Shown: positions 685 to 55,085, counted from the stretch's first letter. The stretch is DNA of 64,000 nt from Verrucomicrobiia bacterium (GCA_963664225.1 OY760937.1:4800001-4864000); one strand, 5' to 3'. The notes: generated by a model from the letters alone, not told the origin. Program-made: numbers and translations.

Positions 685-2313
685 ATGAAATTCAGGAAAG
701 TTGTTTTGCTGGCGGTCGGGATGGGGATGGGGATTATTTCTTCAGTCGGCGCGGCGGCACCAGGAGCGCGGGTGGGGAATTCATTGGTTCAATACCATTT
801 TTTGGGATTAGACCAGGTTGCCTCAGACACAAACGCCCAGTCGATCCATGCCTTGTCTGGGTCGCCATCCACGCGGCAATTGCGCGAGCAGGTCTTGGAA
901 AAACTTTCTGCGGCGCCGCAACAACTTTTTGCCGGGCGCATTTCCTCCCAGTCCGCACCAACTGCGCCGTTATTTAGTCCATTATGGGAGGATCTGTTGC
1001 GCAACGAATCTTTTGGAGAATTGCATGGGAGCGCCAAAGAGCCGCTGGAATGGGTGCTGGCCGTGCGTTTGAATGATGATCGGGCCGGCCTGTGGAGTTC
1101 GAATTTGAGCAAGGTGGCGATGCAATGGGGTTTGGGAACGCCTGCTGCAGTAAAAATTGCCGACGCCTCGGGCTGGGTGGCAGGCGGAGCTGGGAAGGGG
1201 AATGAGCGTGCGGCCCAGTTCCTATGTGTGCGCGCCCATTCATGGGTAGTTATAGGCGTGGGAACCCATGAATTGCGGGCGACGAAGGCGTTGTTGGAAC
1301 GATTGGATAAACAGGACAAGATGGCTTTTTCCGAAGAAGGAGCCTGTTTGACGATAAAAAGTGATCTGGCAGGGTTGAGTCATTGGTGGACAGTACCCAT
1401 GCTTCGCCAATTCAATTGCGCGGATCTGCCGTTTCTGGATCTTTCCAGCTCGTTTAAAGCGGGCAATTTATATTCCAGCGGCACGCTGACATTCGCCCAT
1501 GCCCGAAAGGTGGACTTGCAGCCCTGGCAAATCCCGATCGACCTGCTGCGCGATCCGCTGATCAGTTTCACCGCCGTTCAAGGGGTGCATTCCTGGCTTA
1601 AGGATTTGGACTGGATCAAGACGCTGCACATCGATAACCCGCCCAACCAGGCTTTTTCATGGGCGCAAGAGTTCATGCCGTTCATGACCTTTGTTGCAGC
1701 GCCAATGAACAACGCCTCGAACGCCATTCCTGCCATCTCGCGGAACCTGCCGACGCTCATCGATCAATATGCGGGAACCAACCGTTCCGGGACGCTGCGT
1801 TATTTTACCAATCAAAACCAGGTTGTCTGGACCGGGCTTCCTGCGGTTGTCCCATTCGTCACTACGGTCAACGTTTCCGGACAGGATTATTTATTTGGTG
1901 GCTGTGTTCTGCCTTGGGTGACGACGAATCTTCCTCCCACCGAGTTGCTGACACAAGTCACCGGGCGCACGAATCTGGTCTATTATGATTGGGAGGTGAC
2001 GGGGGCGCGACTAAGCCAGGTGCGGGTTTTGGAGCAAATCAGGGACATGGTGTTCAGCACATCGACAACGTTTGACGACGTGCAGCGCACAAACTCCTTT
2101 GGCAATGCCTGGCTGACATCCGCCGCGCCAATATTGGGGAATGTGGTGACTGAGATTTCCATGCAATCAAACAACCAATGGACGTTGAAACGAAAATCCA
2201 GCGCCGGATTCACGGCGTATGAGTTGATCCAGGTCATCAAATGGCTGGACGATCCTCAATTCCCGTTGTTTGGCCATACGCTCGCCGCTCCTGAACGCCG
2301 GGGCGCAAAGTAA
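685..2313 (+). CDS. Secreted hypothetical protein (542 aa)
   Basis: Long ORF with an N-terminal Sec-type signal (MKFRKVVLLAVGMGMGIISSVGAAA). No family recognised. Ends 16 nt before pdxJ. Confidence 0.75.
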   Translation: MKFRKVVLLAVGMGMGIISSVGAAAPGARVGNSLVQYHFLGLDQVASDTNAQSIHALSGSPSTRQLREQVLEKLSAAPQQLFAGRISSQSAPTAPLFSPLWEDLLRNESFGELHGSAKEPLEWVLAVRLNDDRAGLWSSNLSKVAMQWGLGTPAAVKIADASGWVAGGAGKGNERAAQFLCVRAHSWVVIGVGTHELRATKALLERLDKQDKMAFSEEGACLTIKSDLAGLSHWWTVPMLRQFNCADLPFLDLSSSFKAGNLYSSGTLTFAHARKVDLQPWQIPIDLLRDPLISFTAVQGVHSWLKDLDWIKTLHIDNPPNQAFSWAQEFMPFMTFVAAPMNNASNAIPAISRNLPTLIDQYAGTNRSGTLRYFTNQNQVVWTGLPAVVPFVTTVNVSGQDYLFGGCVLPWVTTNLPPTELLTQVTGRTNLVYYDWEVTGARLSQVRVLEQIRDMVFSTSTTFDDVQRTNSFGNAWLTSAAPILGNVVTEISMQSNNQWTLKRKSSAGFTAYELIQVIKWLDDPQFPLFGHTLAAPERRGAK

Positions 2314-2329
2314 ATTCACCATTTTTACC

Positions 2330-3070
2330 ATGCTCAAACTGGGTGTTAATATCGATCATGTGGCCACCATTCGGCAGGCCCGCTATCATGGACGCGACAC
2401 GGGTGAGCCCAGTCCTCTGGAGGCGGCGCTCCTCTGCGAAGCGGCGGGCGCACACGGGATTACGGCACATCTGCGGGAGGACCGCCGTCATATCCAGGAT
2501 CGTGATATCTGGGAATTGAGAAAAGAGATCAAGACCCGGTTGAACATGGAAATGGCCAATACACCGGGTATTCTCGAAATCGCCCTGCGCCTTAAACCGG
2601 AAATCGTTTGCCTGGTGCCGGAACGCCGCCAGGAGGTGACGACCGAAGGCGGTTTGGATGCCGCCGGTCAATGCACGTCCCTGACGGAAACGAGAAAACG
2701 GCTCAATGACAAAGGGATCGATGTGAGCCTGTTCATCGGGCCGGATGCCCATCAAGTGGAAGCCGCCGCCAGGATTGGGAGCCAATTCATCGAATTGCAC
2801 ACCGGGGCTTTTGCGGAGAGTGCCCATTCGCCGGAATTGTTTCAGAAGGAAATCAAGCGGTTGGTGGATGCCGCACGCCAGGCGCATGGACTGGGGCTTA
2901 AAGTCAACGCGGGACATGGTTTGAATTATCAGAATATGACCGCTTTGTGGGCCGTTCCACACATGGTCGAGTTGAACATCGGCCACAGCATCATCAGTCG
3001 CGCGGTGATGGTTGGTTTGCCCGTCGCCGTGAAGGAAATGCTCGCGCTGATGAGCCAGTATCGCGGCTAA
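2330..3070 (+). CDS. pdxJ: Pyridoxine 5'-phosphate synthase
   Basis: LGVNIDHVATIRQAR, HLREDRRHIQ, TTEGGLD, IELHTG, NAGHGL and ELNIGHSII motifs; ATG at 2330. Confidence 0.97.
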   Translation: MLKLGVNIDHVATIRQARYHGRDTGEPSPLEAALLCEAAGAHGITAHLREDRRHIQDRDIWELRKEIKTRLNMEMANTPGILEIALRLKPEIVCLVPERRQEVTTEGGLDAAGQCTSLTETRKRLNDKGIDVSLFIGPDAHQVEAAARIGSQFIELHTGAFAESAHSPELFQKEIKRLVDAARQAHGLGLKVNAGHGLNYQNMTALWAVPHMVELNIGHSIISRAVMVGLPVAVKEMLALMSQYRG

Positions 3071-3091
3071 AACTCTCTATCGAATCCGATC

Positions 3092-3490
3092 ATGATACTT
3101 GGAGTTGGCATCGATTTAGTCGAAACCGCACGCATCAAAGCGTCGATGGACAAATTTGGCGATCGCTTTCTTGCCCGCATTTTGCGGCCGGGCGAGCAGG
3201 AATATTGCCGCAAGTTCCGGGATCCTGAAACGCATGTGGCCGCGCGATTTTCGGCCAAGGAGGCCATCTCAAAGGCCTTTGGAACCGGTATTGGCAAGGA
3301 GTTGGGCTGGTTGGATATGGAGATCGTAAACCAGCCGGGAGGCCGTCCGGTGGCCATTCTTCATGATCGTGGGTTGGAACTGCTGGCGGCACGCGGCGGG
3401 CATGCATTGCATGTGAGCTTGAGCCACACCCGCAGTCATGCCACCGCCATCGCCATCCTGACCGACGAACACCCACCAGGCCAGGTCTGA
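3092..3490 (+). CDS. acpS: Holo-[acyl-carrier-protein] synthase
   Basis: GVGIDLVE, ARFSAKEAISKAFGTG and VSLSH motifs; canonical pdxJ-acpS order. Confidence 0.96.
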   Translation: MILGVGIDLVETARIKASMDKFGDRFLARILRPGEQEYCRKFRDPETHVAARFSAKEAISKAFGTGIGKELGWLDMEIVNQPGGRPVAILHDRGLELLAARGGHALHVSLSHTRSHATAIAILTDEHPPGQV

Positions 3491-3586: not shown

Positions 3587-4384
3587 GTGGCTGGCAACCG
3601 ATCCCGAACGAACAGCGATTTTTTAAGCCGTGTGGATGAATATCTTCCCACCGACGCGGCCGTGATCGCCGTTGACGCCTCCGAACAGTCCGAACCGGTG
3701 GCCAGCGTGGATCTTCTAAATGGGAATACTTTCTACCTCTTCAGCTCCGACGCACTACTGGCTGCGAGCCACGCCATAGAGGATTTGGCCCTGGACGAGG
3801 CCAACGGAACCTTGCTAGTCGTGTTGCAGGATTTCGACAATTTCGACACCGATCGGGAACGCTACGCCCTGCTGGCGGCGACCATAGACGGTGTTGCGGT
3901 GGTGGGCTGCGGACGCAAGCCCCGGCATTGTGGACGTGTGCAATTCATAACAGCGGGTCAGAGCGCACTGAAGGATTTTTGGGTCGTGCTTTATCAAGGA
4001 CGCCAGACTCAGGCGCTGGTCATGAGTCGGCAGACGCACCGCACAAACGCTTTTGAAGATCGCACTTTTGTCGGGTTTTATACCTTTGACGCCCGGTTGA
4101 TTGCCAGAGTGCGACAGGACATCGAGGGCTTGTTGCATGGGGAATCGCCGGCTTTGCGCGAGTATGACCGGCTGCGGCAGATCGATCGCACGGTTAAGGA
4201 GGTTCGCGCGGTCTTGCGCCGGGAGCAACTGGCTTTGGATTCGACTCACAACAAAATCCAATTTGGCCGCGTTCAACCCAGGACACTGGCTTCGCGCATC
4301 GACTCCATAGTCAACCAATTGCAAACCATCAAAACCATGCTGCCAGAAGATCCAACTCGCGCGGCATCTCCCAACAAATCATGA
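3587..4384 (+). CDS. DICT sensory domain protein with C-terminal helical/coiled-coil tail
   Basis: LLAASHAIEDLA...LLVVLQDFDNF...ERYALLA...FWVVL...FVGFYTFD matches the DICT domain pattern. No enzymatic output domain seen. Confidence 0.7.
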   Translation: MAGNRSRTNSDFLSRVDEYLPTDAAVIAVDASEQSEPVASVDLLNGNTFYLFSSDALLAASHAIEDLALDEANGTLLVVLQDFDNFDTDRERYALLAATIDGVAVVGCGRKPRHCGRVQFITAGQSALKDFWVVLYQGRQTQALVMSRQTHRTNAFEDRTFVGFYTFDARLIARVRQDIEGLLHGESPALREYDRLRQIDRTVKEVRAVLRREQLALDSTHNKIQFGRVQPRTLASRIDSIVNQLQTIKTMLPEDPTRAASPNKS

Positions 4385-5043
4385 TCGAACTTTTCCAATT
4401 CCCATGGAGTCCATACTGCATTGTTCAACGGCGCCTGCTTGAATATTCGGGCGCCCGCTTCAAGATCGTCAACATTCCCCAGGGGGATCGATCAATCATC
4501 TGGAAGCTGACGCGCCAAAGGTATTATGCCGTGCCCATCATTCGCGATGGGCGAACCGTGGTGTTTGAGACAGATGAGGATTCGCAGGTGATCGCCAAAT
4601 ACATCGATGGAAAGTATGAATTGGGGCTTTTTCCCTCCACGCTGGCCGGCGTTCAAAAAATTCTCTGGAGATATTTTGAATCGGAGATCGAATCCGTTGG
4701 CTTCAAGCTCAACGACATTTACTACAGGGAATTTGTGCCGCAAAACGAGCGGCTCTCCTTCATCCGGCACAAGGACCGCAAGTTCGGCCACGGTTGCCTC
4801 GAACTTTGGACCAAGGAACAAGCGGCGTTGCTGCAGGACTTGGAGCAAAGGCTCCAACCCTGTGACCAAATGCTCATCGGCAAGCCATTCCTGCTCGGGG
4901 ATAAGCCGCTATTTGTGGACTTCGACCTCTACGGCATGCTCGGCAATTATTTGCATTCCGGCCATTACGATATGCCTGCGTCGCATACCCGGCTGGCGGA
5001 GTGGCGCCAACGCATGGACAAGCTTGTAAAGGCGAAGGTTTGA
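4381..5043 (+). CDS. Glutathione S-transferase family protein
   Basis: N-terminal thioredoxin-like FPWSPYC, YAVPII, DSQVIAKYID; C-terminal PFLLGDKPLFVDF. ATGA overlap with the upstream gene. Confidence 0.85.
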   Translation: MIELFQFPWSPYCIVQRRLLEYSGARFKIVNIPQGDRSIIWKLTRQRYYAVPIIRDGRTVVFETDEDSQVIAKYIDGKYELGLFPSTLAGVQKILWRYFESEIESVGFKLNDIYYREFVPQNERLSFIRHKDRKFGHGCLELWTKEQAALLQDLEQRLQPCDQMLIGKPFLLGDKPLFVDFDLYGMLGNYLHSGHYDMPASHTRLAEWRQRMDKLVKAKV

Positions 5044-5113
5044 CCGGGCTTTGCATGACCGTTCTTCGTTTTGGAATTGAAAATCGTGGGGTGTGAGGTT
5101 TACTCGCGCCGAC

Positions 5114-5737
5114 ATGGTTCAATTTTCTGTCATATCGTTTCACGCCTCATCCATCCTTTGGGCCATGGCGGCTGTCCTTGCAGCCTATGCGCTGGGATGC
5201 TTCTCCACGGGTTTTTTCTATTACAAATGGCGGACCGGCAGGGACATTCGGGACTTTGGCAGCGGAAATGCGGGAGCGCGGAATGTGGGGCGCGCCTTGG
5301 GCAAGGCCGGATTCTTTGTCACCTTTCTCGGTGACTTTGGCAAAGGCATGATGGCGACAGGACTGGTGCGAGTGTTTCATCTGGACCCATGGGTTGCGGC
5401 AGGGGTTTTGGTGGCGGTGGTGGCGGGGCATAACTGGCCGGCGCCATTGCAGTTCCGGGGCGGCAAAGGGATGGCGACCGCGGGAGGGGCCATATTGTTA
5501 TTTGATTGGACGCTCACGGCTTGCTCAGCGGCGGCATTTATCGTGATCTGGATAATTTTGCGAAGGACAACGCTCAGCGGTCTGCTGGCTTGCGCCGCGG
5601 CCCCGGTGTTGCTCTGGATATTCAAGCCCGAATTGCCACTGGTCATGGGCGCTTCGATTCTTGCCTTGGAGGTCCTGATCGCGCATCATGCCAATGTGCG
5701 CGAGGAAATTTTGCGGCTGGGTTTGCGCCGCAGCTGA
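5114..5737 (+). CDS. plsY: PlsY-family acyltransferase (glycerol-3-phosphate acyltransferase or paralogue)
   Basis: Motif 1 GSGNAGARNVGR, DFGKG, GHNWP, motif 2 FRGGKGMATAGG, motif 3 AHHANV; multi-pass hydrophobic. Start could be 5093, 5114 or later. Confidence 0.85.
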   Translation: MVQFSVISFHASSILWAMAAVLAAYALGCFSTGFFYYKWRTGRDIRDFGSGNAGARNVGRALGKAGFFVTFLGDFGKGMMATGLVRVFHLDPWVAAGVLVAVVAGHNWPAPLQFRGGKGMATAGGAILLFDWTLTACSAAAFIVIWIILRRTTLSGLLACAAAPVLLWIFKPELPLVMGASILALEVLIAHHANVREEILRLGLRRS

Positions 5738-5759
5738 AGAAAGCGCACTGCATAGGGTT

Positions 5760-7394
5760 ATGGAATCTCAACAACCACTGAAATTTAAGATAGCGAACGA
5801 AGATTGGGAATTCGAGTTGGTGCATCGGCTCAATTACAAGACTTTCGTGGAGGAAATTCCACAACACAAACCGCATCCCAACCAGCGACTTGTTGATAAG
5901 TTCCATTCGGAGAACACTTACATCATCGCGATGGACGGGAATACGCTGGCCGGAATGATCGCTTTCCGTTCGAACCGGCCATTTTCCCTGGACCACAAAA
6001 TTGCGAATCTCGATTCTTACCTGCCGCCGGGCCGCACGGTATGCGAAGTCCGGTTGCTGGCAGTCGAGCGGGCCTATCGCACGGGTTGGGCGTTTCGCGG
6101 GTTAGCGGAGTTTCTGGCCCAATACGGATTGGCGCAGGGCTATGACCTGGCGGTGATTTCGGGAACCACGCGTCAGCTCAAGCTCTATCAGCACCTCGGT
6201 TTTAAACCGTTTGGCCCCACTGTGGGTGAGGTCGGAGCCCAGTTTCAGCCGATGTATCTGACGCTGGAGGCGTTTCTGGAACAAGCCAGCGCCGTGCTTC
6301 AGAACAACGATGGTTCCCAGGTCAGAACCGTCAGTTTCCTGCCGGGTCCGGTGTCCATTGCAATGCCAGTCCAAAATGCTTTGGGGCAGTCGGCCATTTC
6401 CCATCGGTCGGACCACTTTCTACTTAATTTCCAAATCACCCAGCAATTGCTTCGGAAAATGACCGGGGCGCGCGAAGTGGAAATATTGCTGGGTTCCGGT
6501 ACGCTGGCCAACGATGTCGTGGCGGGCCAATGGAAGCTGGAGACCAAACCGGGTTTGATCCTGAGCAACGGCGAGTTTGGCGAACGGCTGATGAACCATG
6601 CACAACGCATGGGGCTGTCCTTTGAAGCGCATCAAAAGGCCTGGGGCGAATCGTATGATTTGAAGGCGGTCCGCAAACAATTGGAAGGGAACCGGAATCT
6701 CGGGTGGTTGTGGGCGGTGCATTGTGAAACGTCCACAGGCATTCTTAACGACATTGCCGGATTGAAAAAGTTGTGCGCCGAGTTCGGCCTGAAATTGGGC
6801 TTGGATTGCATCAGCACATTGGGCGTTCTGCCGGTCAACCTTGAGGGAGTGTATCTGGCCTCGGGTGTCAGCGGCAAGGGGCTGGCTTCATTTCCCGGCC
6901 TGTCGATGGTTTTTCATAATTACAAGGCCGTGCCCGCGCCTGACCGGCTGCCACGTTACCTGGACCTTGGCTATTGCGCCGCGTGCGAAGGAATTCCCTT
7001 CACTCATTCCTCGAATTTGCTCGGGGCTTTGCTGGCGGCCCTGCGCCGGAACAATTCGAGGCGTTATGCGGAATTGGTGGAGACGGCGGACTGGCTGCGC
7101 ACGCAATTGTTGGAAGCGGGATTTCATCTTGTGGCGCCTGCTTCAGAGGCTTCGCCCGCGGTATTCACTATCGCGCTTCCACGCAATATCCATTCGCGGA
7201 TCGCCGCCAAACGGATGCAAAAGGCGGGCTATCTGCTCAGTTACGGCAGTGAGTATTTGCTGCGCCGCAACTGGATTCAGATTTGCCTTATGGGCGAATA
7301 TTCCCGCGATGACCTGATGGGCCTGCTGGCGGCATTGCGGTCCTTGCATCGCAACCACGAGCCGAAATCGGCGAGCCTTGCGGCAACGGCTTGA
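5760..7394 (+). CDS. Fusion: N-acyl amino acid synthase-like GNAT (N-term) plus class V PLP aminotransferase (C-term); N-acyl-serinol synthase-like
   Basis: N-term HRLNYKTFVEEIPQH...LVDKFH...EVRLLAVERAYR...LYQHLGF. C-term FLPGPV, GSGTLAND, NGEFGERL, VHCETSTG, LDCISTLG and SGKGL (PLP Lys). Confidence 0.8.
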   Translation: MESQQPLKFKIANEDWEFELVHRLNYKTFVEEIPQHKPHPNQRLVDKFHSENTYIIAMDGNTLAGMIAFRSNRPFSLDHKIANLDSYLPPGRTVCEVRLLAVERAYRTGWAFRGLAEFLAQYGLAQGYDLAVISGTTRQLKLYQHLGFKPFGPTVGEVGAQFQPMYLTLEAFLEQASAVLQNNDGSQVRTVSFLPGPVSIAMPVQNALGQSAISHRSDHFLLNFQITQQLLRKMTGAREVEILLGSGTLANDVVAGQWKLETKPGLILSNGEFGERLMNHAQRMGLSFEAHQKAWGESYDLKAVRKQLEGNRNLGWLWAVHCETSTGILNDIAGLKKLCAEFGLKLGLDCISTLGVLPVNLEGVYLASGVSGKGLASFPGLSMVFHNYKAVPAPDRLPRYLDLGYCAACEGIPFTHSSNLLGALLAALRRNNSRRYAELVETADWLRTQLLEAGFHLVAPASEASPAVFTIALPRNIHSRIAAKRMQKAGYLLSYGSEYLLRRNWIQICLMGEYSRDDLMGLLAALRSLHRNHEPKSASLAATA

Positions 7395-8946: not shown

Positions 8947-9081
8947 GTCCGGGCATCATTGCCTGACGGCGCTCTTTTTCAATCCCAAACCGCGCACAAT
9001 TCCCTTGAAACATCTCCATCGGGTGGCAAATTGGGCCTATGTCAGCAAACCAGTTCAAATCCAAATGGAGTTTCCCTTCTT

Positions 9082-10446
9082 ATGAATAATACTCAAACCC
9101 GCATCTCTCGCCGTCGGTTTTTGCGCGCATCCGCCGCATCGGCCGCCATCGCCCCATTTTTCATGGGGACGTTTGCAAGGGGCGTTTCGCCCAATGAAAA
9201 AATGAATCATGCCTGCATTGGAGTGGGTGGCATGGGGTGGGGTGATCTGAATAATTTTCTCCAGCACCCGCGTGTTCAAATTACCGCGTTATGCGATGTG
9301 GATGCGAACAATCTGCAAAATGCGGCCAAGGCGGTTCCCGGCGCGCGGCTATATCGTGACTGGCGCGAATTGCTCGAGAAAGAGGGGGATCGCATTGATT
9401 CCGTCAATGCGGCTGTGCCCGATCATTCGCACTTTCCGATCATCTACAGCGCGATTCAAAAAGGCAAACACGTCTATTGCCAGAAACCAATGTGCCATGA
9501 TGTGGCCGAGGTGCGCGCCTTGACAGAAGCGGCCGTACGCAAAAAGGTGATCAGCCAGCTTGGCACCCAGGTTGCTTCGAGCGTTGGAGACCGGACAGCG
9601 GTGGAATTTCTCAGATCCGGTGTGATCGGCAAAGTCCAGAAGGCCTTTCTTTGCTCGAATCGTCCGGGCGCCGTGGAAACCTACCGGTTAAAAGGTCCAC
9701 GTCCAGCCCAGGGGCAGGAGCCGCCGGATTATTTGAAGTGGGATCTCTGGCTCGGCACCGCGCCTGTGCGTCCGTATGTGCCGGACATTTATCATCAGAC
9801 CAAATGGCGTGCATGGCAGGATTTCGGCACCGGTTGGTCTGGCGACATCGGTTGCCATATTTTTGACGCGGTCTGGAAGGGGCTGAAAATGGCTCCCCCG
9901 ACCTCGGTCATCGCCGAGGTGCAGCAATCCTGGAAGAACTCGCCTGAGCGCCGTGGGGATACCTGGCCTCAGGGCGATCATATCACTTGGGTCTTTCCTG
10001 GCAACGAGTTCACCGATTCGAAGGAGTGGACTTTGGAGTGGTTTGACGGGGAATTTTATCCACCCAAGGAAATTCGGGCCTTGTATTCGGTGGAGGATTA
10101 TCCTGCGGAATCGGCCATGGTGGTGGGAACAGAAGGGGCCATGCTTAATCCGCACGGCGGCACGCCTGTGTTATTACCTGAAGCCAAGTTCAAGGATGTC
10201 AAACGGCCCAAGTTGGAGAACCGAAACCATTACCACCACTTCATCGATGCCTGCCTGGGCGGGCCGATGTGCGAATCCCACTTTGCGCAGTCGGGTCCTA
10301 TGACCGAGGCCATCATTTTGGGCACGGTGGCCATTCGCAATCCGGATCAAAAATTGGAGTGGGATGCGAAAAATCTGAAAATTGCGAACTTCCCCGAAGC
10401 GGAAAAATTCCTACGCCGCACTTACCGCGACGGTTGGAAGGTGTAA
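9082..10446 (+). CDS. Tat-exported Gfo/Idh/MocA oxidoreductase
   Basis: SRRRFL Tat motif, IGVGGMG, PDHSH, CQKPM, WDLWLG, DFGTG and DIGCH. Confidence 0.9.
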   Translation: MNNTQTRISRRRFLRASAASAAIAPFFMGTFARGVSPNEKMNHACIGVGGMGWGDLNNFLQHPRVQITALCDVDANNLQNAAKAVPGARLYRDWRELLEKEGDRIDSVNAAVPDHSHFPIIYSAIQKGKHVYCQKPMCHDVAEVRALTEAAVRKKVISQLGTQVASSVGDRTAVEFLRSGVIGKVQKAFLCSNRPGAVETYRLKGPRPAQGQEPPDYLKWDLWLGTAPVRPYVPDIYHQTKWRAWQDFGTGWSGDIGCHIFDAVWKGLKMAPPTSVIAEVQQSWKNSPERRGDTWPQGDHITWVFPGNEFTDSKEWTLEWFDGEFYPPKEIRALYSVEDYPAESAMVVGTEGAMLNPHGGTPVLLPEAKFKDVKRPKLENRNHYHHFIDACLGGPMCESHFAQSGPMTEAIILGTVAIRNPDQKLEWDAKNLKIANFPEAEKFLRRTYRDGWKV

Positions 10447-12265: not shown

Positions 12266-12757
12266 TCATTTGGTTATTGCCACAGGAGCAAGACCGAAAT
12301 CGGTTAATTCCCGCACGAGTTTTTCCGCCAAATCCTCAAGGATGGCCTGCAAGGTCGGAGTCAATTGGTCGCTCAATTCAGTGGAAGCGGGAACGACGCC
12401 AAACAAGGTGATTTCCTTGGGGCAACATCCGCGCAATTCGCTGATCATGAGCATTTCCTGCACGCCAATCTGATGCGGGGAAAGTTTTACGGGCAATCGA
12501 TGCCGCATAAAATCCTCTTTTTCGTAGCGAAAGCACTGGCCAGGAGTCCCTTGCGACTCGGCTGTCACGGTGTCGATGATATAGACGCGCTCGGCCTCCT
12601 CAATTTTGTGTGTGGCCATGATCCCCAGCGTGCCCGCGTCAAAAAGTTCGACGTTTTGCGGGAAGGTGTAGCGCGCCTCCAGATATTGGATGAAATGAAC
12701 GCCAAATCCTTCGTCGGAAAGCAGCAGATTGCCCGCGCCAAAGATCAGCACCTTCAT
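12266..12757 (-). CDS. hybD: Hydrogenase maturation endopeptidase (HyaD/HybD)
   Basis: GAGNLLLSDEGFGVH, DAGTLG and LSPHQIG; follows the large subunit. Confidence 0.93.
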   Translation of the reverse strand: MKVLIFGAGNLLLSDEGFGVHFIQYLEARYTFPQNVELFDAGTLGIMATHKIEEAERVYIIDTVTAESQGTPGQCFRYEKEDFMRHRLPVKLSPHQIGVQEMLMISELRGCCPKEITLFGVVPASTELSDQLTPTLQAILEDLAEKLVRELTDFGLAPVAITK

Positions 12758-12830
12758 GGGAACAAGTGCTCCAATCCGGACCGGACCGGTTGCGAGGCAA
12801 TTCGGGCATTATAAGACATCGTATCCGTTT

Positions 12831-14516
12831 TCAGCGCACCTGCACCGAAGTTAGTTCCCGTCCTTGAGGGTCGATGGAATGCACCGCGCAGGCGATGCAA
12901 GGATCGAACGAATGGACGGTACGCAGCACTTCGAGCGGCTTTTCGGCATCCGCAATCGGGGTGCCCGGCAGGGAGGCTTCATAGGGGCCGGCCACGCCTT
13001 TTTCGTCGCGCGGAGAGGCGTTCCATGTGGTGGGGACCACGGCCTGGTAATTGTCGATTTTCTTGTCCTTGATGACGATCCAGTGCGAGAGGCTGCCTCG
13101 GGGGGCTTCGTGAAAACCGACGCCTTTGAATTCGCCGGAAGGTATCTCGGTGTGGTTGGCGTAGGTTTTATCGCCACTCCCGACATTCGCGATGAGCTTG
13201 TCTAGATAATCAATGGAAAGATCGGCCATGACATTGGCCCGGATACCGCGAGCCAGAATGCGGCCCATGGTGGAGTGAAAATCCTTCAATTCGATTCCAA
13301 GGCTGGTTTTGGCCCCATCGACCAATGACTTGATCCGGGGATTTCCTGCGACGTAGTTGACGAGCACTTGTGCCGAAGGACCAACCTGGACGGGTTGGCC
13401 TTCCAGTCGCGGCGCTTTGCACCAGGTGTATTTTGCATCGGGCTTGAAATCGCTATAGCTGGGTTTGGTCTCGCCCTTCCAGGGATGCAGCGGCGCGTCG
13501 TCTTCATACCAGGCATGAGCGGAGGACTCCTGAATATTTGCGATCAAATACTCGTCCTTGTGGTCCTTAATGGGGCGAATTTTGGCCAGATCCCCCTGGG
13601 TGATGATGCCGCCGGTCAGGCCGAATTGGGTGGCCCTGGCGTCTTCGGGGAATTCAGGGACGGCCATGTAGTTGGTAACGCCCGCACCGTAACCGAACCA
13701 TTCCTTGTAGGCACCTGCGATGGCCAGGAGATCGGGATAATAAACCTGCTGAACAAAGGTGCGCGATTCTTCCATTAGCGAGCGCAAGAGCGCCAGACGC
13801 TCCATGTTAAGAGTCGCCAGGTTTTCGGTGTTGATGGCCGTGGCCACGCCGCCCACGACCAAGTTCTGAATGTGCGGATTTTTACCACCCAAAACGGCGA
13901 TTGCCTGGGCTGCCTTGCGTTGGTAATCGAACGCCTTGAGATAGTGCGCGACGGCCAGAAGATTGATTTCCGGAGGGAGCTTCATCGCGGGATGTCCCCA
14001 ATAACCTGAAGCAAAAAGACCGAGTTTGCCGCCATCGACGAAGGATTGCAGGCGGTTGCGCACGGCTTTGAATTCGGTTTCGCTGTTTCCCGACCAATCC
14101 GAGAGGCTTTGGGCAATTTGAGCGGTCTTCTTCGGATCCGCCTTCAAGGCCGAGACCAGGTCCACCCAGTCCAGCGCGGACAGGTGGTAGAAATGCACGA
14201 TGTGATCCTGCACGGAATGCTGCGCAATCATGATGTTGCGGACGAGTTGCGCATTCAGAGGGATCTCGACTTTCAGGGCGTGTTCGACCGCGCGGATTGA
14301 GCTGATGGCATGAACGGTGGTGCAAACGCCGCAAAAGCGTTGCACATAGGTCCAGGCATCCTGGGGTTCACGGCCTTTGAGGATGACCTCGATGCCGCGC
14401 CACATCTGGGCCGATGCCCAGGCCTTGGTCACCTGGCCATCTCCCACCTCGACATCCATGCGGAGGTGACCTTCGATGCGCGTGACGGGATCCAAAGTAA
14501 TCGTGCGAGTAGCCAT
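12831..14516 (-). CDS. hybC: [NiFe]-hydrogenase large subunit (group 1, hydrogenase-2 type)
   Basis: DPVTRIEGH, L1 QRFCGVCTTVH, EAPRG, L2 SFDPCIACAVH plus a cleavable C-terminal extension. Confidence 0.95.
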   Translation of the reverse strand: MATRTITLDPVTRIEGHLRMDVEVGDGQVTKAWASAQMWRGIEVILKGREPQDAWTYVQRFCGVCTTVHAISSIRAVEHALKVEIPLNAQLVRNIMIAQHSVQDHIVHFYHLSALDWVDLVSALKADPKKTAQIAQSLSDWSGNSETEFKAVRNRLQSFVDGGKLGLFASGYWGHPAMKLPPEINLLAVAHYLKAFDYQRKAAQAIAVLGGKNPHIQNLVVGGVATAINTENLATLNMERLALLRSLMEESRTFVQQVYYPDLLAIAGAYKEWFGYGAGVTNYMAVPEFPEDARATQFGLTGGIITQGDLAKIRPIKDHKDEYLIANIQESSAHAWYEDDAPLHPWKGETKPSYSDFKPDAKYTWCKAPRLEGQPVQVGPSAQVLVNYVAGNPRIKSLVDGAKTSLGIELKDFHSTMGRILARGIRANVMADLSIDYLDKLIANVGSGDKTYANHTEIPSGEFKGVGFHEAPRGSLSHWIVIKDKKIDNYQAVVPTTWNASPRDEKGVAGPYEASLPGTPIADAEKPLEVLRTVHSFDPCIACAVHSIDPQGRELTSVQVR

Positions 14517-14556
14517 TGCTTGATAGAGGGTATGATTAAATTCTCAGTGTTTGCTC

Positions 14557-15882
14557 TTATATTTCCACGCATTCCTGATTGCCGGTTGTAACGGCGGCTT
14601 TGCCGGATGGATGGCGTGCGGTCCGAGTGCCATGGCCTTCGGATATGACCTTGGGCAGCACCGGGCAAAGTTTGACCATCACCTGATAGCCCAGTAATTC
14701 CAGGGAAACTATTCCAACGGTGATCATCACTTCGGAGAGGGACGGGAAATAGGTCCAGCCCTGACCCGGATTGAATCCGATCAGATAGACGTTGAAGCGG
14801 TAAAGACCTCCGCCCAGGACAATGAACACTGCGGAGATGAACAACGCCCTTGGGGAGTGGCGTCTTTTCGTCGAGCAGAGGATGAATGACCCGTAGCACA
14901 GCAACGCGACCTGCAATAAGAAGAAGAAGGAGTAAAAGTCGAAGCGGAAGGCCGCAGCCAATTGATTGCGATTAATAAGATCACCAAAAACCACCGTCAG
15001 CCAGATTCCCGTCAACCACGGTATGATGCGCGCCAGGCCGGCCAGTTCATTGACTTCGTAGGGCCGATCGAAAGCATAGGAGGAGAGGATTGATTCCAGC
15101 AACACGACAGCGTAGCCGATGTAGATACAATTGATCAGGAATAACAGGGGCAGAAAACCGGTGTGCCATAGGGGATGGAGTTTCGTGGCGGCAATCAGCA
15201 GCAGCGATCCCAGGCTGGACTGGTGCATGGTCGGCAGAGTGACTCCCAGAACGATGATGAATATGAGCACCTTGTCGAGTTTGGGCCTGGCCCACGCGGC
15301 AAGCACGCGCACCCATTCCATCCGGTTGGACAGGACTTCCTGGCTCGGCGCCAATTTGGGATTGAGCCAGTCCATGAAGGCGCGCAACCGCCGCCACCGG
15401 GTTGATTCGAGAGAAGTCAGTATCGCCGGCAGAAACTCGATGATCAGCACGGTGCTGTAGGCCATGACGCAGAGGGCCAGTTCGAACATCACCGAATTAA
15501 ACTGCATCTTCGAGGGGATGAAAAAATTGTAGAAATTCCACGGACGCCCGATGTCCACCATGATCGAGAAACCGGCCAGCGCGTAACCGAACATGCTGGT
15601 AAGAATGCAGGATCGGATCAGCGGGTGATAATGCATGCGGTTACGGATGTAGATCAGAATCGCCACTGCATAGCCGCCGCAGGAAATGGCGGTTCCCGTG
15701 GCCATATCATACGCGATCCAGATGCCCCATGGGTAGCCGTCGCTCAAGTTGGTGACCGCGCCCAACCCCTTGAAACAACGGACGCCGATCAGAACCATTC
15801 CAATGATGGTCAGGACCACCAGCACCAGGAATGATGGTGTGACAATCCGACCCTCCTGTTTTTGATATTCGTCGTGGCCCAT
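14557..15882 (-). CDS. hybB: Hydrogenase-2 integral membrane subunit (NrfD family)
   Basis: GLGAVTNLSDGYPWGIWIAYD, DIGRPW, LPTMHQSSLGSL, KLHPLW and YRFNVYL. Confidence 0.92.
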   Translation of the reverse strand: MGHDEYQKQEGRIVTPSFLVLVVLTIIGMVLIGVRCFKGLGAVTNLSDGYPWGIWIAYDMATGTAISCGGYAVAILIYIRNRMHYHPLIRSCILTSMFGYALAGFSIMVDIGRPWNFYNFFIPSKMQFNSVMFELALCVMAYSTVLIIEFLPAILTSLESTRWRRLRAFMDWLNPKLAPSQEVLSNRMEWVRVLAAWARPKLDKVLIFIIVLGVTLPTMHQSSLGSLLLIAATKLHPLWHTGFLPLLFLINCIYIGYAVVLLESILSSYAFDRPYEVNELAGLARIIPWLTGIWLTVVFGDLINRNQLAAAFRFDFYSFFFLLQVALLCYGSFILCSTKRRHSPRALFISAVFIVLGGGLYRFNVYLIGFNPGQGWTYFPSLSEVMITVGIVSLELLGYQVMVKLCPVLPKVISEGHGTRTARHPSGKAAVTTGNQECVEI

Positions 15883-16821
15883 TTACGATTTCCCCTTTTT
15901 CTTCGCGCCCGCCTCAGGCGATTCCTTGTCCGCGCCGTTTTGCTTCATGTTTTTGAGAGCCAGGGCGCAAAGTGTTCCGTACAGGGCTATCGGCGCGAAG
16001 AATCCCTTGTAGATCGTGTGCTGTATCTTCTCGGAAAACTCGGCTGGGGCCTCCTTCTGGAGTTCCGGAAGGCCCAGTTTGGAAAACGGCATCGCGGCCA
16101 GATACAGGTGGTTGGTGCCGCCGACTTCATGCTCGCCATAAACATGGTCCACGTATTTGTTCGGATGGCTTTTGATCCGGGCATGAGCCTCTGTGAGCAA
16201 TTCCTGACGCTTGCCAAAGAGTATGGCCCCGGTCGGACAGGTTTCCGCGCAGGCGGTGATTCCTTTTTGAACCAGGTTCGTCCTCCGGCAAAAGTCGCAT
16301 TTGACTATTTGTGGTATCGGACGGTCCCATTGGGATTTGGGAATATTGAAGGAGCAGGCCACCTGGCAGTAACGACAGCCGATGCAGTTGTCCTTGTTGT
16401 AATCGACAATTCCAGTGACCTTGTCCTTGGTCATGGCGCTGACCGGACAGACGGAGACGCAGGAGGGCTTCTGGCAATGCATGCAGGAATACTTTATATA
16501 GGACCAGATCCCCTTTTTCTCCTTGAACAGTTTAATGATGGTCCGGGTGTCGCCCGATAAATCCTCAGGTGCGTCCCACACGGCGTCCTTATCGAACGGG
16601 GCTTTTTCGAAGGCAAGGCTGCCGTAATCGCCATTGACCCGTTTGCAGGCGGACATGCAGGCCTTGCAACCGACGCATTTGGTGGCGTCATAGAGCATGC
16701 CCAACTCGTCATTGTTGACCTTGTGCTCCGTGGAGGCTTCGGTGCTGACGGTTGCGGCCATGCATCCCGCTCCCGCCGCTCCAATTGCCTTGAAAAAACC
16801 GCGTCTATTTTGTTTTTTCAC
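15883..16821 (-). CDS. hybA: Hydrogenase-2 Fe-S subunit
   Basis: GTG start overlapping the hybO end; NRRGFFK Tat motif; four ferredoxin Cys clusters (CVGCKACMSAC, CMHCQKPSCVSVCP, CIGCRYCQVAC, CDFC...CAETCP); SEKIQHTIYKG plus C-terminal TM. Confidence 0.93.
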   Translation of the reverse strand: MKKQNRRGFFKAIGAAGAGCMAATVSTEASTEHKVNNDELGMLYDATKCVGCKACMSACKRVNGDYGSLAFEKAPFDKDAVWDAPEDLSGDTRTIIKLFKEKKGIWSYIKYSCMHCQKPSCVSVCPVSAMTKDKVTGIVDYNKDNCIGCRYCQVACSFNIPKSQWDRPIPQIVKCDFCRRTNLVQKGITACAETCPTGAILFGKRQELLTEAHARIKSHPNKYVDHVYGEHEVGGTNHLYLAAMPFSKLGLPELQKEAPAEFSEKIQHTIYKGFFAPIALYGTLCALALKNMKQNGADKESPEAGAKKKGKS

Positions 16822-17926
16822 GTCCTGCCTTGGTTGGTGGGTTTTCGGGAAGTTTTTTGGCCACCATTGCGCCCGCGCCCAGAAGCGCTCCGGCGGCAAG
16901 GCCCACAATTCCGGTGGTCAACGGGTCAGGACCTTTGCCCTTTTCCTTCAAATCGACCGGTGCGTAACTGTCAAATGGCGTCGGCTCATGGATTTGCACC
17001 TTTTCGGCAATGGGCATTTTAAACAAAATATCCGGTTCCGTGCAGCCAATGCAGGGATGTCCGATGGAAACAGGCCAGGCGCCAACGTCATTAAACCTTA
17101 GAACCGAGCAGTTTGCATATGTCGCGGGACCTTTGCACCCCAGCTTGTAGAGGCAATATCCCTGCGCGTGCGTGTCGTCGCCATAGGAAAGCGCGAAGCG
17201 ACCGGCGTCAAAATGTGGACGACGCTCACAATGCTCATGGATCTTGCGTCCGTAGGCGAACTTGGGCCGTCCCAGCGCATCGAGTTCGGGCAGTTTCTTA
17301 AAGGTCAAATAATACAGGACGGTCGAAAGGAAATTATAGGGATTGGGCGGACAACCTGGGATGTTGATGATCGGCTTGTCTTTGATAATGTCGCGCACGC
17401 CAACGGCCCCGGTGGGGTTGACTCCCACGGATTGGATGCCGCCATAGCTGGCGCAAGTGCCAATGGCGATAATGGCCGCCGCTCCGTCCGCCGCGTGACG
17501 CAGCGATTCCAGAGCCGTTTTACCGCCCACTTTGCAGTAAATGCCGTTCCCGGCGGTGGGGATGGCTCCCTCGACCACGAGAATGTAGCGTCCACGATTA
17601 TCGGTCAAAGACTTCTGCAAGGATTCCTCGGCTTGATGACCCGAACCGGCCATCAAGGTCTCGTGGTAATCCAGGGAAATCATGTCAAAAATTAGATTTG
17701 ATAATGTAGGATGGCTCGAGCGCAGTAGAGATTCTGAACAGCCGGTGCATTCCTGGAAATGAAGCCAGATGACGGGGGGATTATTATTGGCCGTGGCAGC
17801 CTCTATCACCTTGGCGCGCATGCTGAAAGGCAATCCCATCAGCGCGGTTGCCGTCACACACATCTTGACGAACTCGCGCCGGGGCAAATTCCCATGTATT
17901 CCACCCTTGTTTCCCGTTTTTTTCAT
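16805..17926 (-). CDS. hybO: [NiFe]-hydrogenase small subunit
   Basis: PRREFVK Tat motif, QECTGCSES, GTCASYGG, PGCPPNP, HEHCERR, CLYKLGCKGP, HPCIGC and C-terminal TM anchor. Start 17926 or 17950. Confidence 0.94.
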   Translation of the reverse strand: MKKTGNKGGIHGNLPRREFVKMCVTATALMGLPFSMRAKVIEAATANNNPPVIWLHFQECTGCSESLLRSSHPTLSNLIFDMISLDYHETLMAGSGHQAEESLQKSLTDNRGRYILVVEGAIPTAGNGIYCKVGGKTALESLRHAADGAAAIIAIGTCASYGGIQSVGVNPTGAVGVRDIIKDKPIINIPGCPPNPYNFLSTVLYYLTFKKLPELDALGRPKFAYGRKIHEHCERRPHFDAGRFALSYGDDTHAQGYCLYKLGCKGPATYANCSVLRFNDVGAWPVSIGHPCIGCTEPDILFKMPIAEKVQIHEPTPFDSYAPVDLKEKGKGPDPLTTGIVGLAAGALLGAGAMVAKKLPENPPTKAGREKTK

Positions 17927-18113
17927 CGCAGAGACAAAATTATAATTCATCGTCAAAAGGCCCGAATCATTGGTTCTACTAATTCTGCATGAGTTTGACG
18001 CGACGAACAAGAGATAAATTTATGTTATCGAAATAAATTTTCGAAATCGCGTTTTGGATGGGGCCGGGCGGTTTTGTCTTTTTTTATTTCAACGTTTTCC
18101 TCATAGTGTCCGG

Positions 18114-21750: not shown

Positions 21751-23139
21751 TCAGGATTCCCATCCGGCGCGATTGTTGCGGCTGACGAATTTAGCGGCAT
21801 CAGGCAGGTTGGGCGACATCATGTTCGGGCCGTCCCATTCCATGCGATTGCCTTCACCCATGCGCAGGGCGATGCAGCCGAGGAGAATGATTTCGGTCAG
21901 ATACGCGGCTACATCGAAATTTGAGTAAGCCGGCGTGCCTTCCTTCATCATGCGGAACCATTCCTGCATGTGACCCGGGGAGCGGGGGATGGTTAAAGGA
22001 ATATCTTTGCAGGCCTCGTGTTTGTCCCCGGCAACGAAGTCATCCTGGCCCTTGAGGGCGAGGTAGAACTGGGCGCCGTAGTCATCCGGCGAGAAGATCT
22101 TGCCTTTATCTCCGACGATCAGGGCGCCGCTGCCCGGGAGTTTGCCCATCATGGTGATGATTTCCTTGCTGACCTCGGCATCGGGGCGCAGAGGCTTCAG
22201 CGGATCGCCCGGATTGCCGTCATACCACCAGAATTTGATCGGAGGCAGACCTTCGCGTTCAGGGAACTCAAAGCGGATGCGCGAGGTCTTGGGGAAGGTC
22301 TCCGGGAAGAACTTGGAGGCCATTTCCAGCTCGACCACGTTGGGGAAGCCCAACTTGAGCGCGCGGAACGGCATGTTGACCGTATGGCAGGCCATGTCGC
22401 CGAGGGCGCCCGTACCGAAATCGAACCAACCGCGCCAATTGAATGGGCAATAGTTCTTTTTGTAAGGACGCATCGCCGCCGGCCCGAGCCAGAGATCCCA
22501 ATCCAGATTTTCGGGAACGGTGTCTTCGCCCGTGGGACGCTCAAGGCCCTGGGGCCACACGGGCCGGTTGGACCAGACATGCAGCTCAAGAGGCTTGCCA
22601 ATCACGCCCGATTGAATGACCTCGACAGCACGGCGCAGACCGTTTTCGGAGCTGCCCTGGTTGCCCATCTGGGTGGCCAGTTTCTTTTCCTTGGCCAGCG
22701 AGCGCATGATGCGCGCTTCCTTGACGGTCTGGACGAGGGGTTTTTGGCAGAAGCAGTGTTTGCCCATCTTCATGGCGCGAATCGCGGCTACGCCATGGTT
22801 GTGGTCAGGTGTGGAAACGGTGACCGCATCGATTTCGCTTCCCATTTCCTCGAGCAGCTTGCGGTAATCGCGATACTGTTTGGCCTTGGGGTAACGTTTC
22901 GCTTTGCTTTCGAGCGTGTTTTTATCGACATCGCAGATCGCGACGATATTGCCGCCGCAGGAGCCGGCGTCGTTGCTGTCGCTGTCGCCCTTGCCGCCGA
23001 CGCCAATGCAAGCAACATTGATGCGGTCGTTGGCGCCCAGGACATTACCCACATAAGGGAATGCGAGGGTGGAGGCACCCAAAGCCAGCGAAGCGCGGCT
23101 GAGGAATTGCCGACGATTAAGAACATTCATGTTAGCCAT
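21751..23139 (-). CDS. Tat-exported Gfo/Idh/MocA oxidoreductase
   Basis: NRRQFL, IGVGGKG, TPDHNH, CQKPL, QMGNQG, WDLWLGP and DFGTGALGDMACH. Confidence 0.9.
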   Translation of the reverse strand: MANMNVLNRRQFLSRASLALGASTLAFPYVGNVLGANDRINVACIGVGGKGDSDSNDAGSCGGNIVAICDVDKNTLESKAKRYPKAKQYRDYRKLLEEMGSEIDAVTVSTPDHNHGVAAIRAMKMGKHCFCQKPLVQTVKEARIMRSLAKEKKLATQMGNQGSSENGLRRAVEVIQSGVIGKPLELHVWSNRPVWPQGLERPTGEDTVPENLDWDLWLGPAAMRPYKKNYCPFNWRGWFDFGTGALGDMACHTVNMPFRALKLGFPNVVELEMASKFFPETFPKTSRIRFEFPEREGLPPIKFWWYDGNPGDPLKPLRPDAEVSKEIITMMGKLPGSGALIVGDKGKIFSPDDYGAQFYLALKGQDDFVAGDKHEACKDIPLTIPRSPGHMQEWFRMMKEGTPAYSNFDVAAYLTEIILLGCIALRMGEGNRMEWDGPNMMSPNLPDAAKFVSRNNRAGWES

Positions 23140-23319
23140 GGTATCCAATGGTTTGATTTTGGTTCGTATTAAAGTGCGAATGCAAAGATTTTTACGCTGG
23201 AAGCGGTGATTGAACAAGTTTTTTCGAACGCCAATTTGCCTTGGCGTTAGTATTTGACGCTCAACAGGATAAACGCGCCGCTAAAATGCCGGACACCGGT
23301 GGGGCGGTGTTGGCCAGGC

Positions 23320-48397: not shown

Positions 48398-48622
48398 AAT
48401 GATATCAGGATTAACAATGCGGAATGTGCGACGAAATGGAGTTTTGAAGCGCGATTTTGGTTCCGGCCATGGCGGCGATGCCCGGCGCAAAAGCGCATAA
48501 AGCGCCCGTCGCTCTGTTCAAATCGCGGATTGGGTTCAAAGCGACGTAAAATCTGTGGCAAAAACCGTGGGGACACAAGCCGAAAGTGGCCCCGCTGGAC
48601 AAGCGAAAGGGCTGGTTAAAAG

Positions 48623-55023: not shown

Positions 55024-55085
55024 CTGGACAGTCATCGCTGGGAGCTGTGCTATGGTGGGGAACACAGATTACTGAACCACTTGCC

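Follow-up and report, generated by a model that had tools for sequence, protein, structure and literature searches.

The window analysed here is a stretch of 64,000 nucleotides from a Verrucomicrobiia bacterium (GCA_963664225.1 OY760937.1:4800001-4864000), and its positions 5114 to 7394 contain two closely spaced genes on the plus strand: a paralogue of the acyltransferase gene plsY, and an open reading frame (ORF) in which an N-acyl synthase is fused to an aminotransferase. The plsY paralogue (5114..5737) encodes 207 amino acids (aa) from an ATG at 5114, with a further in-frame GTG at 5093, and ends with a TGA at 5735-5737. Following a 22-nt spacer (5738..5759), the 544-aa fusion ORF (5760..7394) begins with an ATG at 5760, a start that is consistent with 17 aligned homologues. 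Its N-terminal part (residues 1-185; 5760..6314) is a FeeM/LuxI-like N-acyl synthase domain of the GNAT type, and its C-terminal part (residues ~193-530; 6336..7349) is a class V aminotransferase domain dependent on pyridoxal phosphate (PLP). A low-confidence linker joins the two (residues ~179-198; 6294..6353), with a predicted local distance difference test score (pLDDT) below 50 in the full-length structural model. We propose that these two genes probably form a self-contained cassette that builds a phosphatidic-acid analogue based on serinol phosphate, which would be the core of serinol-based phospholipids.

Domains and coupling of the two genes

The product of the first gene matches PF02660 (G3P_acyltransf) at 137.5 bits (cut-off 24.1) over profile positions 2-162 of 164, and lies under the cut-off of the PlsY equivalog TIGR00023 (120.3 versus 137.2 bits). 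The N-terminal domain of the fusion matches PF21926 (FeeM) at 40.4 bits (cut-off 27; residues 22-161) and PF13444 at 26.1 bits (cut-off 22.4). Generic GNAT models score below FeeM on the fusion (Acetyltransf_10, 26.6 bits; Acetyltransf_1, 24.3 bits), and the fold of the domain is nearest to those of FeeM and the acyl-homoserine lactone (AHL) synthases, not to small acetyltransferases. No solved close relative of this domain was found by sequence (best E-value 0.16). The C-terminal domain matches PF00266 (Aminotran_5) at 22.7 bits (cut-off 21.5). An earlier reading, made from the DNA alone and called here the sequence-only reading, had placed a PlsY-family gene 22 nt upstream of a 544-aa fusion, had named the three domains, and had likened the GNAT to acyl-transferring synthases. 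The positions and content of both genes were borne out, all four of the motif strings it quoted (RLNYKTFVEE, DKFH, EVRLLAV and SGKG) are found in the translation, and the profile and fold matches above agree with its domain assignments and with its choice of GNAT type.

Relatives of the fusion were scanned in one genome per species, and at least 578 were confirmed out of 600 pattern matches. Adjacency was counted over the best 80 of these at least 578 loci, 73 of which have at least 700 nt of upstream DNA. A plsY homologue lies directly upstream on the same strand at 64 of these 73 informative loci; of the seven loci whose upstream DNA is too short, three show the tail of a plsY at the contig edge. 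Measured from the stop of plsY to the start of the fusion, the median spacing of the 64 pairs is -4 nt. The genes overlap in 44 of them (by exactly 4 nt in 38), and the remaining gaps measure 0-30 nt in 15 pairs, 31-100 nt in three and more than 100 nt in two. Judged by their labels, the genomes of the best 80 fusion loci span about eight or more phyla, comprising Verrucomicrobiota, Methylomirabilota, Acidobacteriota, Desulfobacterota, Gemmatimonadota, Kiritimatiellota (Pontiella), Bacillota (Lederbergia, Desulfitobacteriaceae), a Burkholderiales metagenome-assembled genome (MAG), Sumerlaeaceae and Krumholzibacteriia; a few of the MAGs, labelled Bifidobacterium, are apparently mislabelled. Named cultured carriers are Limisphaera, Lederbergia, Sporosarcina, Neobacillus and Desulforhopalus. 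The adjacency of plsY and fusion, which the proposed pairing of the two genes had presupposed, is thus conserved across phyla. At one locus, L066 (positions 338-2266, in the Burkholderiales MAG), a major facilitator superfamily (MFS) transporter fused to a PlsC-type acyltransferase, in a layout like that of LplT-Aas, replaces the upstream plsY. The genome of L066 has one PlsY, and the other plsY-less loci have unrelated neighbours.

In some genomes the coupling extends to a single chain. One Verrucomicrobiota genome (G038) encodes a 738-aa ORF in which PF02660 covers residues 20-190, FeeM 227-366 and Aminotran_5 417-698. A search with the synthase domain over 1.84 billion cluster representatives returned 196 proteins at E <= 1e-30; among the best 150, five whose match starts near residue 190-210 were tested. 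Each of the five has a PlsY domain on the N-terminal side of FeeM; two of these proteins are full-length (734 and 768 aa) and the other three truncated. A separate search for longer proteins containing the cassette PlsY gave three matches of 758-776 aa, all of them PlsY plus FeeM. ORFs of 761-767 aa at L016, L047 and L059 were rejected as fusions; they are frame artefacts in which the extension is out of the plsY frame and contains no PF02660 domain. Directly 5' of the triple fusion of G038 (L119, 1779-3096) lie genes for a MarR regulator and a class I S-adenosylmethionine (SAM)-dependent methyltransferase, and a methyltransferase likewise lies 5' of the fusion at L044. These methyltransferases could provide a head-group methylation step.

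A whole-genome search returned two PF02660 matches in the source genome, one of 186.9 bits at C1:5211153-5211707 and the window copy at 137.3 bits. The former is a separate housekeeping plsY, for which the sequence-only reading had proposed a search, and it lies directly 5' of a 326-aa ORF read by eye as gpsA. Only one FeeM-type gene was found in the genome, which also encodes PlsX, the enzyme that supplies acyl-phosphate. Of 61 evenly sampled Verrucomicrobiota genomes, all have PlsY, and a second, lower-scoring PlsY (111-137 bits) occurs in four (G000, G035, G038 and G045). Exactly these four genomes of the 61 carry a full-length fusion, and the second copy lies directly upstream of it in every case. 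Four further genomes of the sample (G052, G013, G002 and G031) have weaker fusion matches only and a single PlsY each; G052 and G013 contain split pairs of N-acyl synthase and aminotransferase genes, and G002 and G031 have aminotransferase matches alone. Lederbergia citrea, Desulforhopalus singaporensis, a Pontiellaceae isolate and a Limisphaera sp., cassette carriers that represent four phyla, likewise encode exactly two PlsY each, with scores of 174-188 and 123-146 bits.

The split form was seen at two loci. At L117 (486-2556, in G013), the gene order is a MarR regulator, a 184-aa FeeM-like N-acyl synthase and, overlapping the synthase gene, a 360-aa aminotransferase; the second case is at G052:C17:41282-42846.

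Active sites of the cassette proteins

According to the passages of PMC5700162 that describe the Aquifex enzyme, PlsY grips glycerol-3-phosphate by its phosphate, with a clamp of Ser35, Arg45, Lys104 and Asn180, and by its 2-hydroxyl, with Ser142 and His177; His92 and Thr41 are the side-chain ligands of the acyl-phosphate, with Thr41 at the carbonyl, and Asn37 is a probable stabiliser of the intermediate. The effect of T41A is severe and N37A loses 80% of activity (PMC5700162, same passages). The cassette PlsY aligns with the solved Aquifex structure 5xj5 at an E-value of 3.4e-19, ungapped across the relevant regions (the chain index of 5xj5 is the number used in the paper plus one). Motif 1 of the window protein, GSGNAGARNVGR (residues 49-60; 5261..5293), contains Ser50, Asn52 and Arg60 at the positions of Ser35, Asn37 and Arg45, and Arg56 in place of Thr41. 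Gly156 (5579..5581) occupies the Ser142 position, and motif 3 (5684..5695) keeps both His191, equivalent to His177, and Asn194, equivalent to Asn180. All four residues of the phosphate clamp are therefore present in the window protein. The sequence-only reading had credited this gene with all three catalytic motifs; the motifs are indeed there, but key positions within them are changed, with Thr41 replaced by Arg and Ser142 by Gly.

These changes are characteristic of the cassette copies as a group. We compared 67 cassette PlsY proteins with 30 housekeeping PlsY proteins, the latter all from Verrucomicrobiota. The phosphate clamp is largely shared: Ser35 is found in 65 of 67 cassette copies, Arg45 in 64, Lys104 in 57 (Arg in 10) and Asn180 in 54 (Arg in nine), and each of these four residues is present in 30/30 housekeeping proteins. 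His177 (67/67) and His92 (66/67) are also kept, again with 30/30 in the housekeeping set. In contrast, Ser142, Thr41 and Asn37, each found in 30/30 housekeeping proteins, are mostly replaced. The Ser142 position is Gly in 54 cassette copies, Ala in 11 and Ser in only two; the Thr41 position is Arg in 56, Lys in three, Thr in seven and Leu in one; and the Asn37 position is Ser in 34, Asn in 15, Gly in nine, Thr in seven and Ala in two. Two further positions separate the groups. Residue 67 of the window protein is Phe in 61 cassette copies and Tyr in six, whereas it is Gly in 30/30 housekeeping proteins, and the residue preceding His177 is Ala in 54 and Thr in eight of the 67, whereas it is Arg in 19 and Lys in 11 of the 30. 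The cassette PlsY has thus kept only His177 of the pair that binds the 2-hydroxyl, and of the side-chain ligands of the acyl-phosphate it keeps His92, with Thr41 mostly replaced. In a maximum-likelihood tree, one branch (SH-aLRT 99.9) parts the 67 cassette from the 30 housekeeping proteins; since the housekeeping set comes from one phylum, the tree shows a grouping of cassette copies from many phyla and not a rooted history.

With the phosphate clamp kept and the 2-hydroxyl residue changed, we read the acceptor of the cassette PlsY as a phosphate ester that would still be shaped like glycerol-3-phosphate and would carry at C2 a group other than a hydroxyl. Serinol phosphate, or its N-acyl form, would be an exact fit to such an acceptor. 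The change of Thr41 to Arg points to a further difference, on the donor side or in the transition state.

The aminotransferase domain falls among the relatives of AGT and PhnW without joining a named equivalog. On residues 193-527, the NCBIfam model PhnW-AepZ (TIGR03301) scores 128.8 bits, far under its cut-off of 360.8, and TIGR02326 scores 85.7 bits against a cut-off of 400.8. A profile search of the PDB gave 1vjo (E 1.8e-36) and PhnW 7e7g (E 2.2e-33), and Foldseek gave TMt values of up to 0.82 against PhnW structures. The PLP lysine, Lys373 (6876-6878), is conserved in 80/80 loci, as are Asp349, Ser214, Arg216 and Gln507, and His215 is conserved in 79/80. Gln507 (7278-7280), in the string 'RNWIQICLMG', aligns with an Arg that 1vjo has within 'WRVG' and PhnW 7e7g within 'FRVG', and that we take to bind the carboxylate or phosphonate of the substrate in AGT and PhnW; the Gln is present in 80/80 loci. 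The literature search found no passage backing a role of Arg340 in PhnW. In the aminotransferase of the split pair at L117, the string SHRS is kept and the Arg is again absent. The Ser214-His215-Arg216 motif (6399-6407) resembles an SHR motif in SerC of Verrucomicrobiota; the profile alignment (hhalign, three SerC proteins) gave a probability of only 0.11, and a SerC-like phosphate-binding role of this motif is a lead. No SerC matching TIGR01364 was found in the source genome. Nor was a phosphoenolpyruvate (PEP) mutase found above the cut-off (20.9 versus 31.5), which disfavours a phosphonate role.

In the N-acyl synthase domain, Glu96 and Arg98 of the EVRLLAV string are invariant (80/80 loci); from work on FeeM and LuxI, we take these two residues to be catalytic. 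A match to this class V aminotransferase family (E 1.1e-29, chain residues 188-509) was also seen in the N-terminal ancillary domain of PDB 9os7, the solved methionyl-tRNA synthetase of Mycoplasma penetrans.

Proposed pathway, product and alternatives

The proposed pathway would comprise three steps, and we infer the chemistry of each. The C-terminal aminotransferase would convert dihydroxyacetone phosphate (DHAP) to serinol phosphate (2-amino-2-deoxy-glycerol phosphate). The fused FeeM-type synthase would then N-acylate the amine with a fatty acyl group, probably taken from acyl-acyl carrier protein (acyl-ACP), and the cassette PlsY would clamp the phosphate and esterify the remaining hydroxyl, with acyl-phosphate from PlsX as its probable donor. 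N-acylation and O-acylation could come in either order. DHAP is the sole phosphorylated three-carbon keto substrate that gives an amine with a free hydroxyl for a PlsY-type enzyme; its use here, like the order of the acylations and the acyl donors, is deduced from the gene content. The resulting N,O-diacyl-serinol phosphate could gain head groups through the ordinary cytidine diphosphate (CDP)-diacylglycerol route.

A lipid of this kind has been reported. The serinophospholipids of Limisphaera ngatamarikiensis were described by Vyssotski et al. (J. Nat. Prod. 2025, 88:373, as cited in PMC13388977), and the citing sentence in PMC13388977 gives them a diacylated serine-derived (serinol) backbone and calls them a third type of phospholipid. 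The sequence-only reading had stated that no such product was known to be characterised, a statement that this 2025 report has overtaken. Among the homologues of the window fusion, P0046 (59% identity) is named L. ngatamarikiensis by NCBI, and it is encoded at L129, in a Limisphaera genome (100% identity over 550 aa). All four Limisphaera genomes (4/4; the genus of L004, Limisphaera sp. 4302-co) have the fusion, and in each a cassette plsY precedes it directly on the same strand. Thus the species in which the lipid was reported carries the cassette. This is a correlation within one genus, and the product is the one that the gene content predicts.

Together with the exact co-occurrence of the second PlsY and the fusion, the single-chain fusions and the remodelled 2-hydroxyl pocket, the cassette in Limisphaera adds partial support to the pathway, and the serinol-lipid pathway put forward in the sequence-only reading is in our judgement the probable and best-supported account of the locus. 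Since it was published in 2025, the serinol phospholipid class itself is not new. Three things appear new against the searchable literature: the assignment of genes, a specialised PlsY clade with defined residue changes and the wide distribution of the cassette. Our literature search found no paper joining these genes to serinophospholipids, nor serinol to PlsY; one apparent match for serinol and PlsY was false, the word being 'serinolysis'. Among the titles and abstract openings searched, no natural bacterial diacyl-serinol lipid was found under the wording diacylserinol or serinol lipid.

Several findings weigh against this pathway. The link to Limisphaera is presence in one genus, and the serinophospholipid is known here from a title and one citing sentence. 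DHAP as substrate has no direct sequence evidence, the low-probability alignment of the Ser-His-Arg motif to SerC being as described above. The full-length AlphaFold2 (AF2) model reaches only a moderate pLDDT of 74.6, with poor quality near Lys373, so no active-site reading was drawn from it. Thr41 and Asn37 matter in the solved PlsY, and their replacement could mean another donor or reaction and not simple O-acylation; the housekeeping proteins with which the pocket was compared represent one phylum only. Finally, an upstream plsY is absent at 9/73 loci, and in five genomes of plsY-less loci no unlinked second PlsY was found in the assembly (none or one PlsY, or two fragments). This suggests that the fusion can work without a cassette plsY.

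If the PlsY paralogue is active, its target could lie elsewhere. The fusion would then make N-acyl serinol or its phosphate, and PlsY would acylate a position off the backbone, for example the 3-hydroxyl of the N-linked fatty acid, to give an acyloxyacyl aminolipid in the manner of OlsA and GlsA. Passages of PMC11631085 describe aminolipid pathways that pair an N-acyl synthase with an O-acyltransferase acting on a 3-hydroxy fatty acid; the PlsC-type acyltransferase fused to an MFS protein at L066, in place of the upstream plsY, points in the same direction, as does the loss of the carbonyl ligand Thr41 in most cassette copies. We nevertheless regard this as improbable. The clamp and His177 are kept and the 2-hydroxyl residue is changed, which suits a glycerol-phosphate-like backbone with a bulkier group at C2, and the sentence citing the Limisphaera lipid has the backbone diacylated (PMC13388977). 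Less likely still is that the paralogue is an ordinary glycerol-3-phosphate acyltransferase isozyme that balances acyl flux, so that the locus would yield nothing beyond N-acyl serinol, a lipid of the signal type. The paralogue clearly belongs to PF02660 and has the phosphate clamp, and nine of 73 loci manage without it, but it scores below the PlsY equivalog cut-off, Ser142, Thr41 and Asn37 (30/30 in housekeeping proteins) are replaced in most cassette copies, and in the 61 Verrucomicrobiota genomes a second PlsY occurs only alongside the fusion, sometimes in one chain with it. Equally little weight falls on a catalytically dead paralogue that would serve as a membrane anchor or substrate-binding platform for the soluble synthase-aminotransferase. 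The clamp, His92, His177 and the glycine-rich loops are near-invariant over at least eight phyla, which would be needless in a mere anchor, and the replacements are themselves conserved (Arg, Gly) and not random. On the other side, the replaced residues Thr41, Asn37 and Ser142 are ones that cripple Aquifex PlsY when mutated, according to passages of PMC5700162, and soluble domains are fused C-terminally to PlsY in G038.

A separate question is whether the aminotransferase makes a different amine, such as 2-aminoethylphosphonate, ethanolamine phosphate, phosphoserine or a non-phosphorylated amino alcohol, so that the lipid would be an N-acyl derivative of that compound. 2-Aminoethylphosphonate transaminases provide the best NCBIfam match and several of the top PDB matches, and no residue-level evidence for DHAP was obtained. 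However, at 128.8 bits the domain falls far short of the PhnW equivalog cut-off of 360.8, the Arg of PhnW and AGT is Gln in 80/80 loci, and the genome has no PEP mutase at cut-off. The phosphorylated alternatives would also offer PlsY no free hydroxyl, a point that leaves aside the non-phosphorylated amino alcohol. We therefore hold a different amine to be about as unlikely as acylation off the backbone, and retain serinol phosphate as the probable intermediate.

Genomic surroundings and relation to known lipid systems

The cassette is flanked upstream by pdxJ, acpS and genes for a DICT-domain protein and a glutathione S-transferase (GST)-like protein, and downstream by lpxA on the opposite strand. 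None of these five flanking genes is kept beside the fusion in the other loci examined. Over the best loci, no conserved neighbour other than plsY was found (by crude ORF calling, in which some ORFs are opposite-strand shadows), and no PlsC-type partner is conserved at the fusion loci examined. A scan for promoters and terminators at the locus gave no signal above shuffle expectation. The pdxJ (PF03740, 318.6 bits) and acpS (PF01648) genes lie in that order at 2270-3490 on the plus strand, about 1.6 kb 5' of the cassette. The product of pdxJ makes the PLP precursor and that of acpS activates ACP, and both cofactors are expected for the fusion; their proximity is probably a coincidence, because the pair is not kept beside the fusion in other loci. 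Directly 5' of the cassette plsY (3587-5043, plus strand), the genes for the DICT-domain protein (PF10069) and the GST/glutaredoxin-2-like protein (PF13417) overlap by 4 nt.

Farther away in the window, the minus strand at 12266-18010 carries a membrane-bound [NiFe] hydrogenase operon with genes for a small subunit (PF01058 and PF14720), a 4Fe-4S protein, an NrfD-like membrane protein, a large subunit (PF00374, 740 bits) and a HycI-type maturation protease. The 64-kb window contains five genes for Gfo/Idh/MocA-family oxidoreductases (8959-10446, 21751-23217, 46973-48490, 50530-51567 and 55047-56450). A 1358-aa protein encoded on the minus strand at 39542-43618 has a C-terminal GDSL lipase-like domain in addition to a WbsX-type glycosyltransferase/glycosidase domain, and a second GDSL protein is encoded at 43910-45235.

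The closest counterpart of the predicted product is the serinophospholipid of Limisphaera, which belongs to the same lipid class and comes from a species that encodes P0046 with an upstream cassette plsY (L129). That lipid is known as chemistry, whereas the window fusion comes from another Verrucomicrobiota lineage (59% identity). The nas gene of Gemella, said to have been described by Cohen et al. in 2017 in Nature, reportedly encodes a two-domain protein with an N-acyl synthase and an aminotransferase, as in the window fusion. Its products are regarded as host-signalling mono-acyl lipids, not as membrane phospholipids. Escherichia coli carrying the single nas gene of Gemella haemolysans makes N-oleoyl serinol, according to a passage of PMC13012048. 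By name, the Gemella enzyme is absent from the 120 best listed relatives of a Bacillota fusion.

With the PlsX/PlsY/PlsC pathway, represented by the Aquifex PlsY structures 5xj5-5xj9, the cassette PlsY shares family and fold as well as the clamp, His92 and His177, and PlsX is encoded in the genome. It differs in being a second, lower-scoring copy in which Ser142 is changed to Gly or Ala, Thr41 is changed to Arg and Asn37 is variable. It also differs in being coupled or fused to an amine-making N-acyl synthase, with no conserved PlsC-type partner at the locus. The OlsB/OlsA, GlsB/GlsA and OlsF systems follow the same logic, in which an N-acyl synthase of the FeeM/OlsB/LuxI fold and acyl-ACP type is followed by an O-acyltransferase (PMC11631085, in part). 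In the cassette, by contrast, the amine would be made in cis by the fused aminotransferase, the second acyltransferase is of the PlsY and not the PlsC type, the predicted ester is on the backbone, and the predicted product retains its phosphate and so can be a phosphatidic-acid analogue. The passages searched in that aminolipid review (PMC11631085) do not mention serinol or an aminotransferase.

For the first step, the nearest solved folds and sequences are those of AGT/SPT and PhnW (1vjo, 7e7g, 1m32 and 9kka), with which the PLP Lys and the Asp are conserved; the window family differs in having Gln507 for the Arg and its own near-invariant Ser-His-Arg motif. Cj1437 of Campylobacter jejuni is a DHAP aminotransferase that makes serinol phosphate. 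RtxA's N-terminal domain (Bradyrhizobium elkanii) catalyses the same reaction as that proposed for the C-terminal domain of the fusion, a likeness of reaction and not of sequence, and provides the precedent for conversion of DHAP to serinol phosphate, as E. coli with RtxA accumulates serinol (passages of PMC3222319). The products of RtxA and Cj1437 feed rhizobitoxine or capsule decoration, unlike the lipids predicted here.

On balance we favour, with somewhat less assurance than the pathway itself, the broader view that the cassette is the route to serinophospholipids, that these lipids, in which an amide takes the position of the sn-2 ester, are widespread in bacterial membranes, and that a specialised PlsY clade acylates the amino-backbone. 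Behind this view stand the relatives of the fusion in at least 578 species genomes, among them those of mesophilic soil Verrucomicrobiota, Bacillaceae, Sporosarcina, reducers of sulfate and metals, Gemmatimonadota and Kiritimatiellota. Should the view be correct, the 'third type of phospholipid' would be common and not the curiosity of one thermophile. Replacement of the sn-2 ester by an amide should alter membrane hydrogen bonding, hydrolytic stability and, as may be supposed, sensitivity to phospholipase A2.

The proposed function would provide the gene basis for a third natural phospholipid backbone beside glycerol and the sphingoid bases. Serinol phospholipids would become a genome-readable trait, and the cassette could predict their producers. 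PlsY, thought to have a single function and with a pocket that its structure authors termed 'invariable' over 7,288 homologues (in a passage of PMC5700162), would have a specialised sister clade with a rebuilt pocket. The N-acyl serinol signals of the human microbiome would, in turn, be tied to a membrane-lipid pathway.

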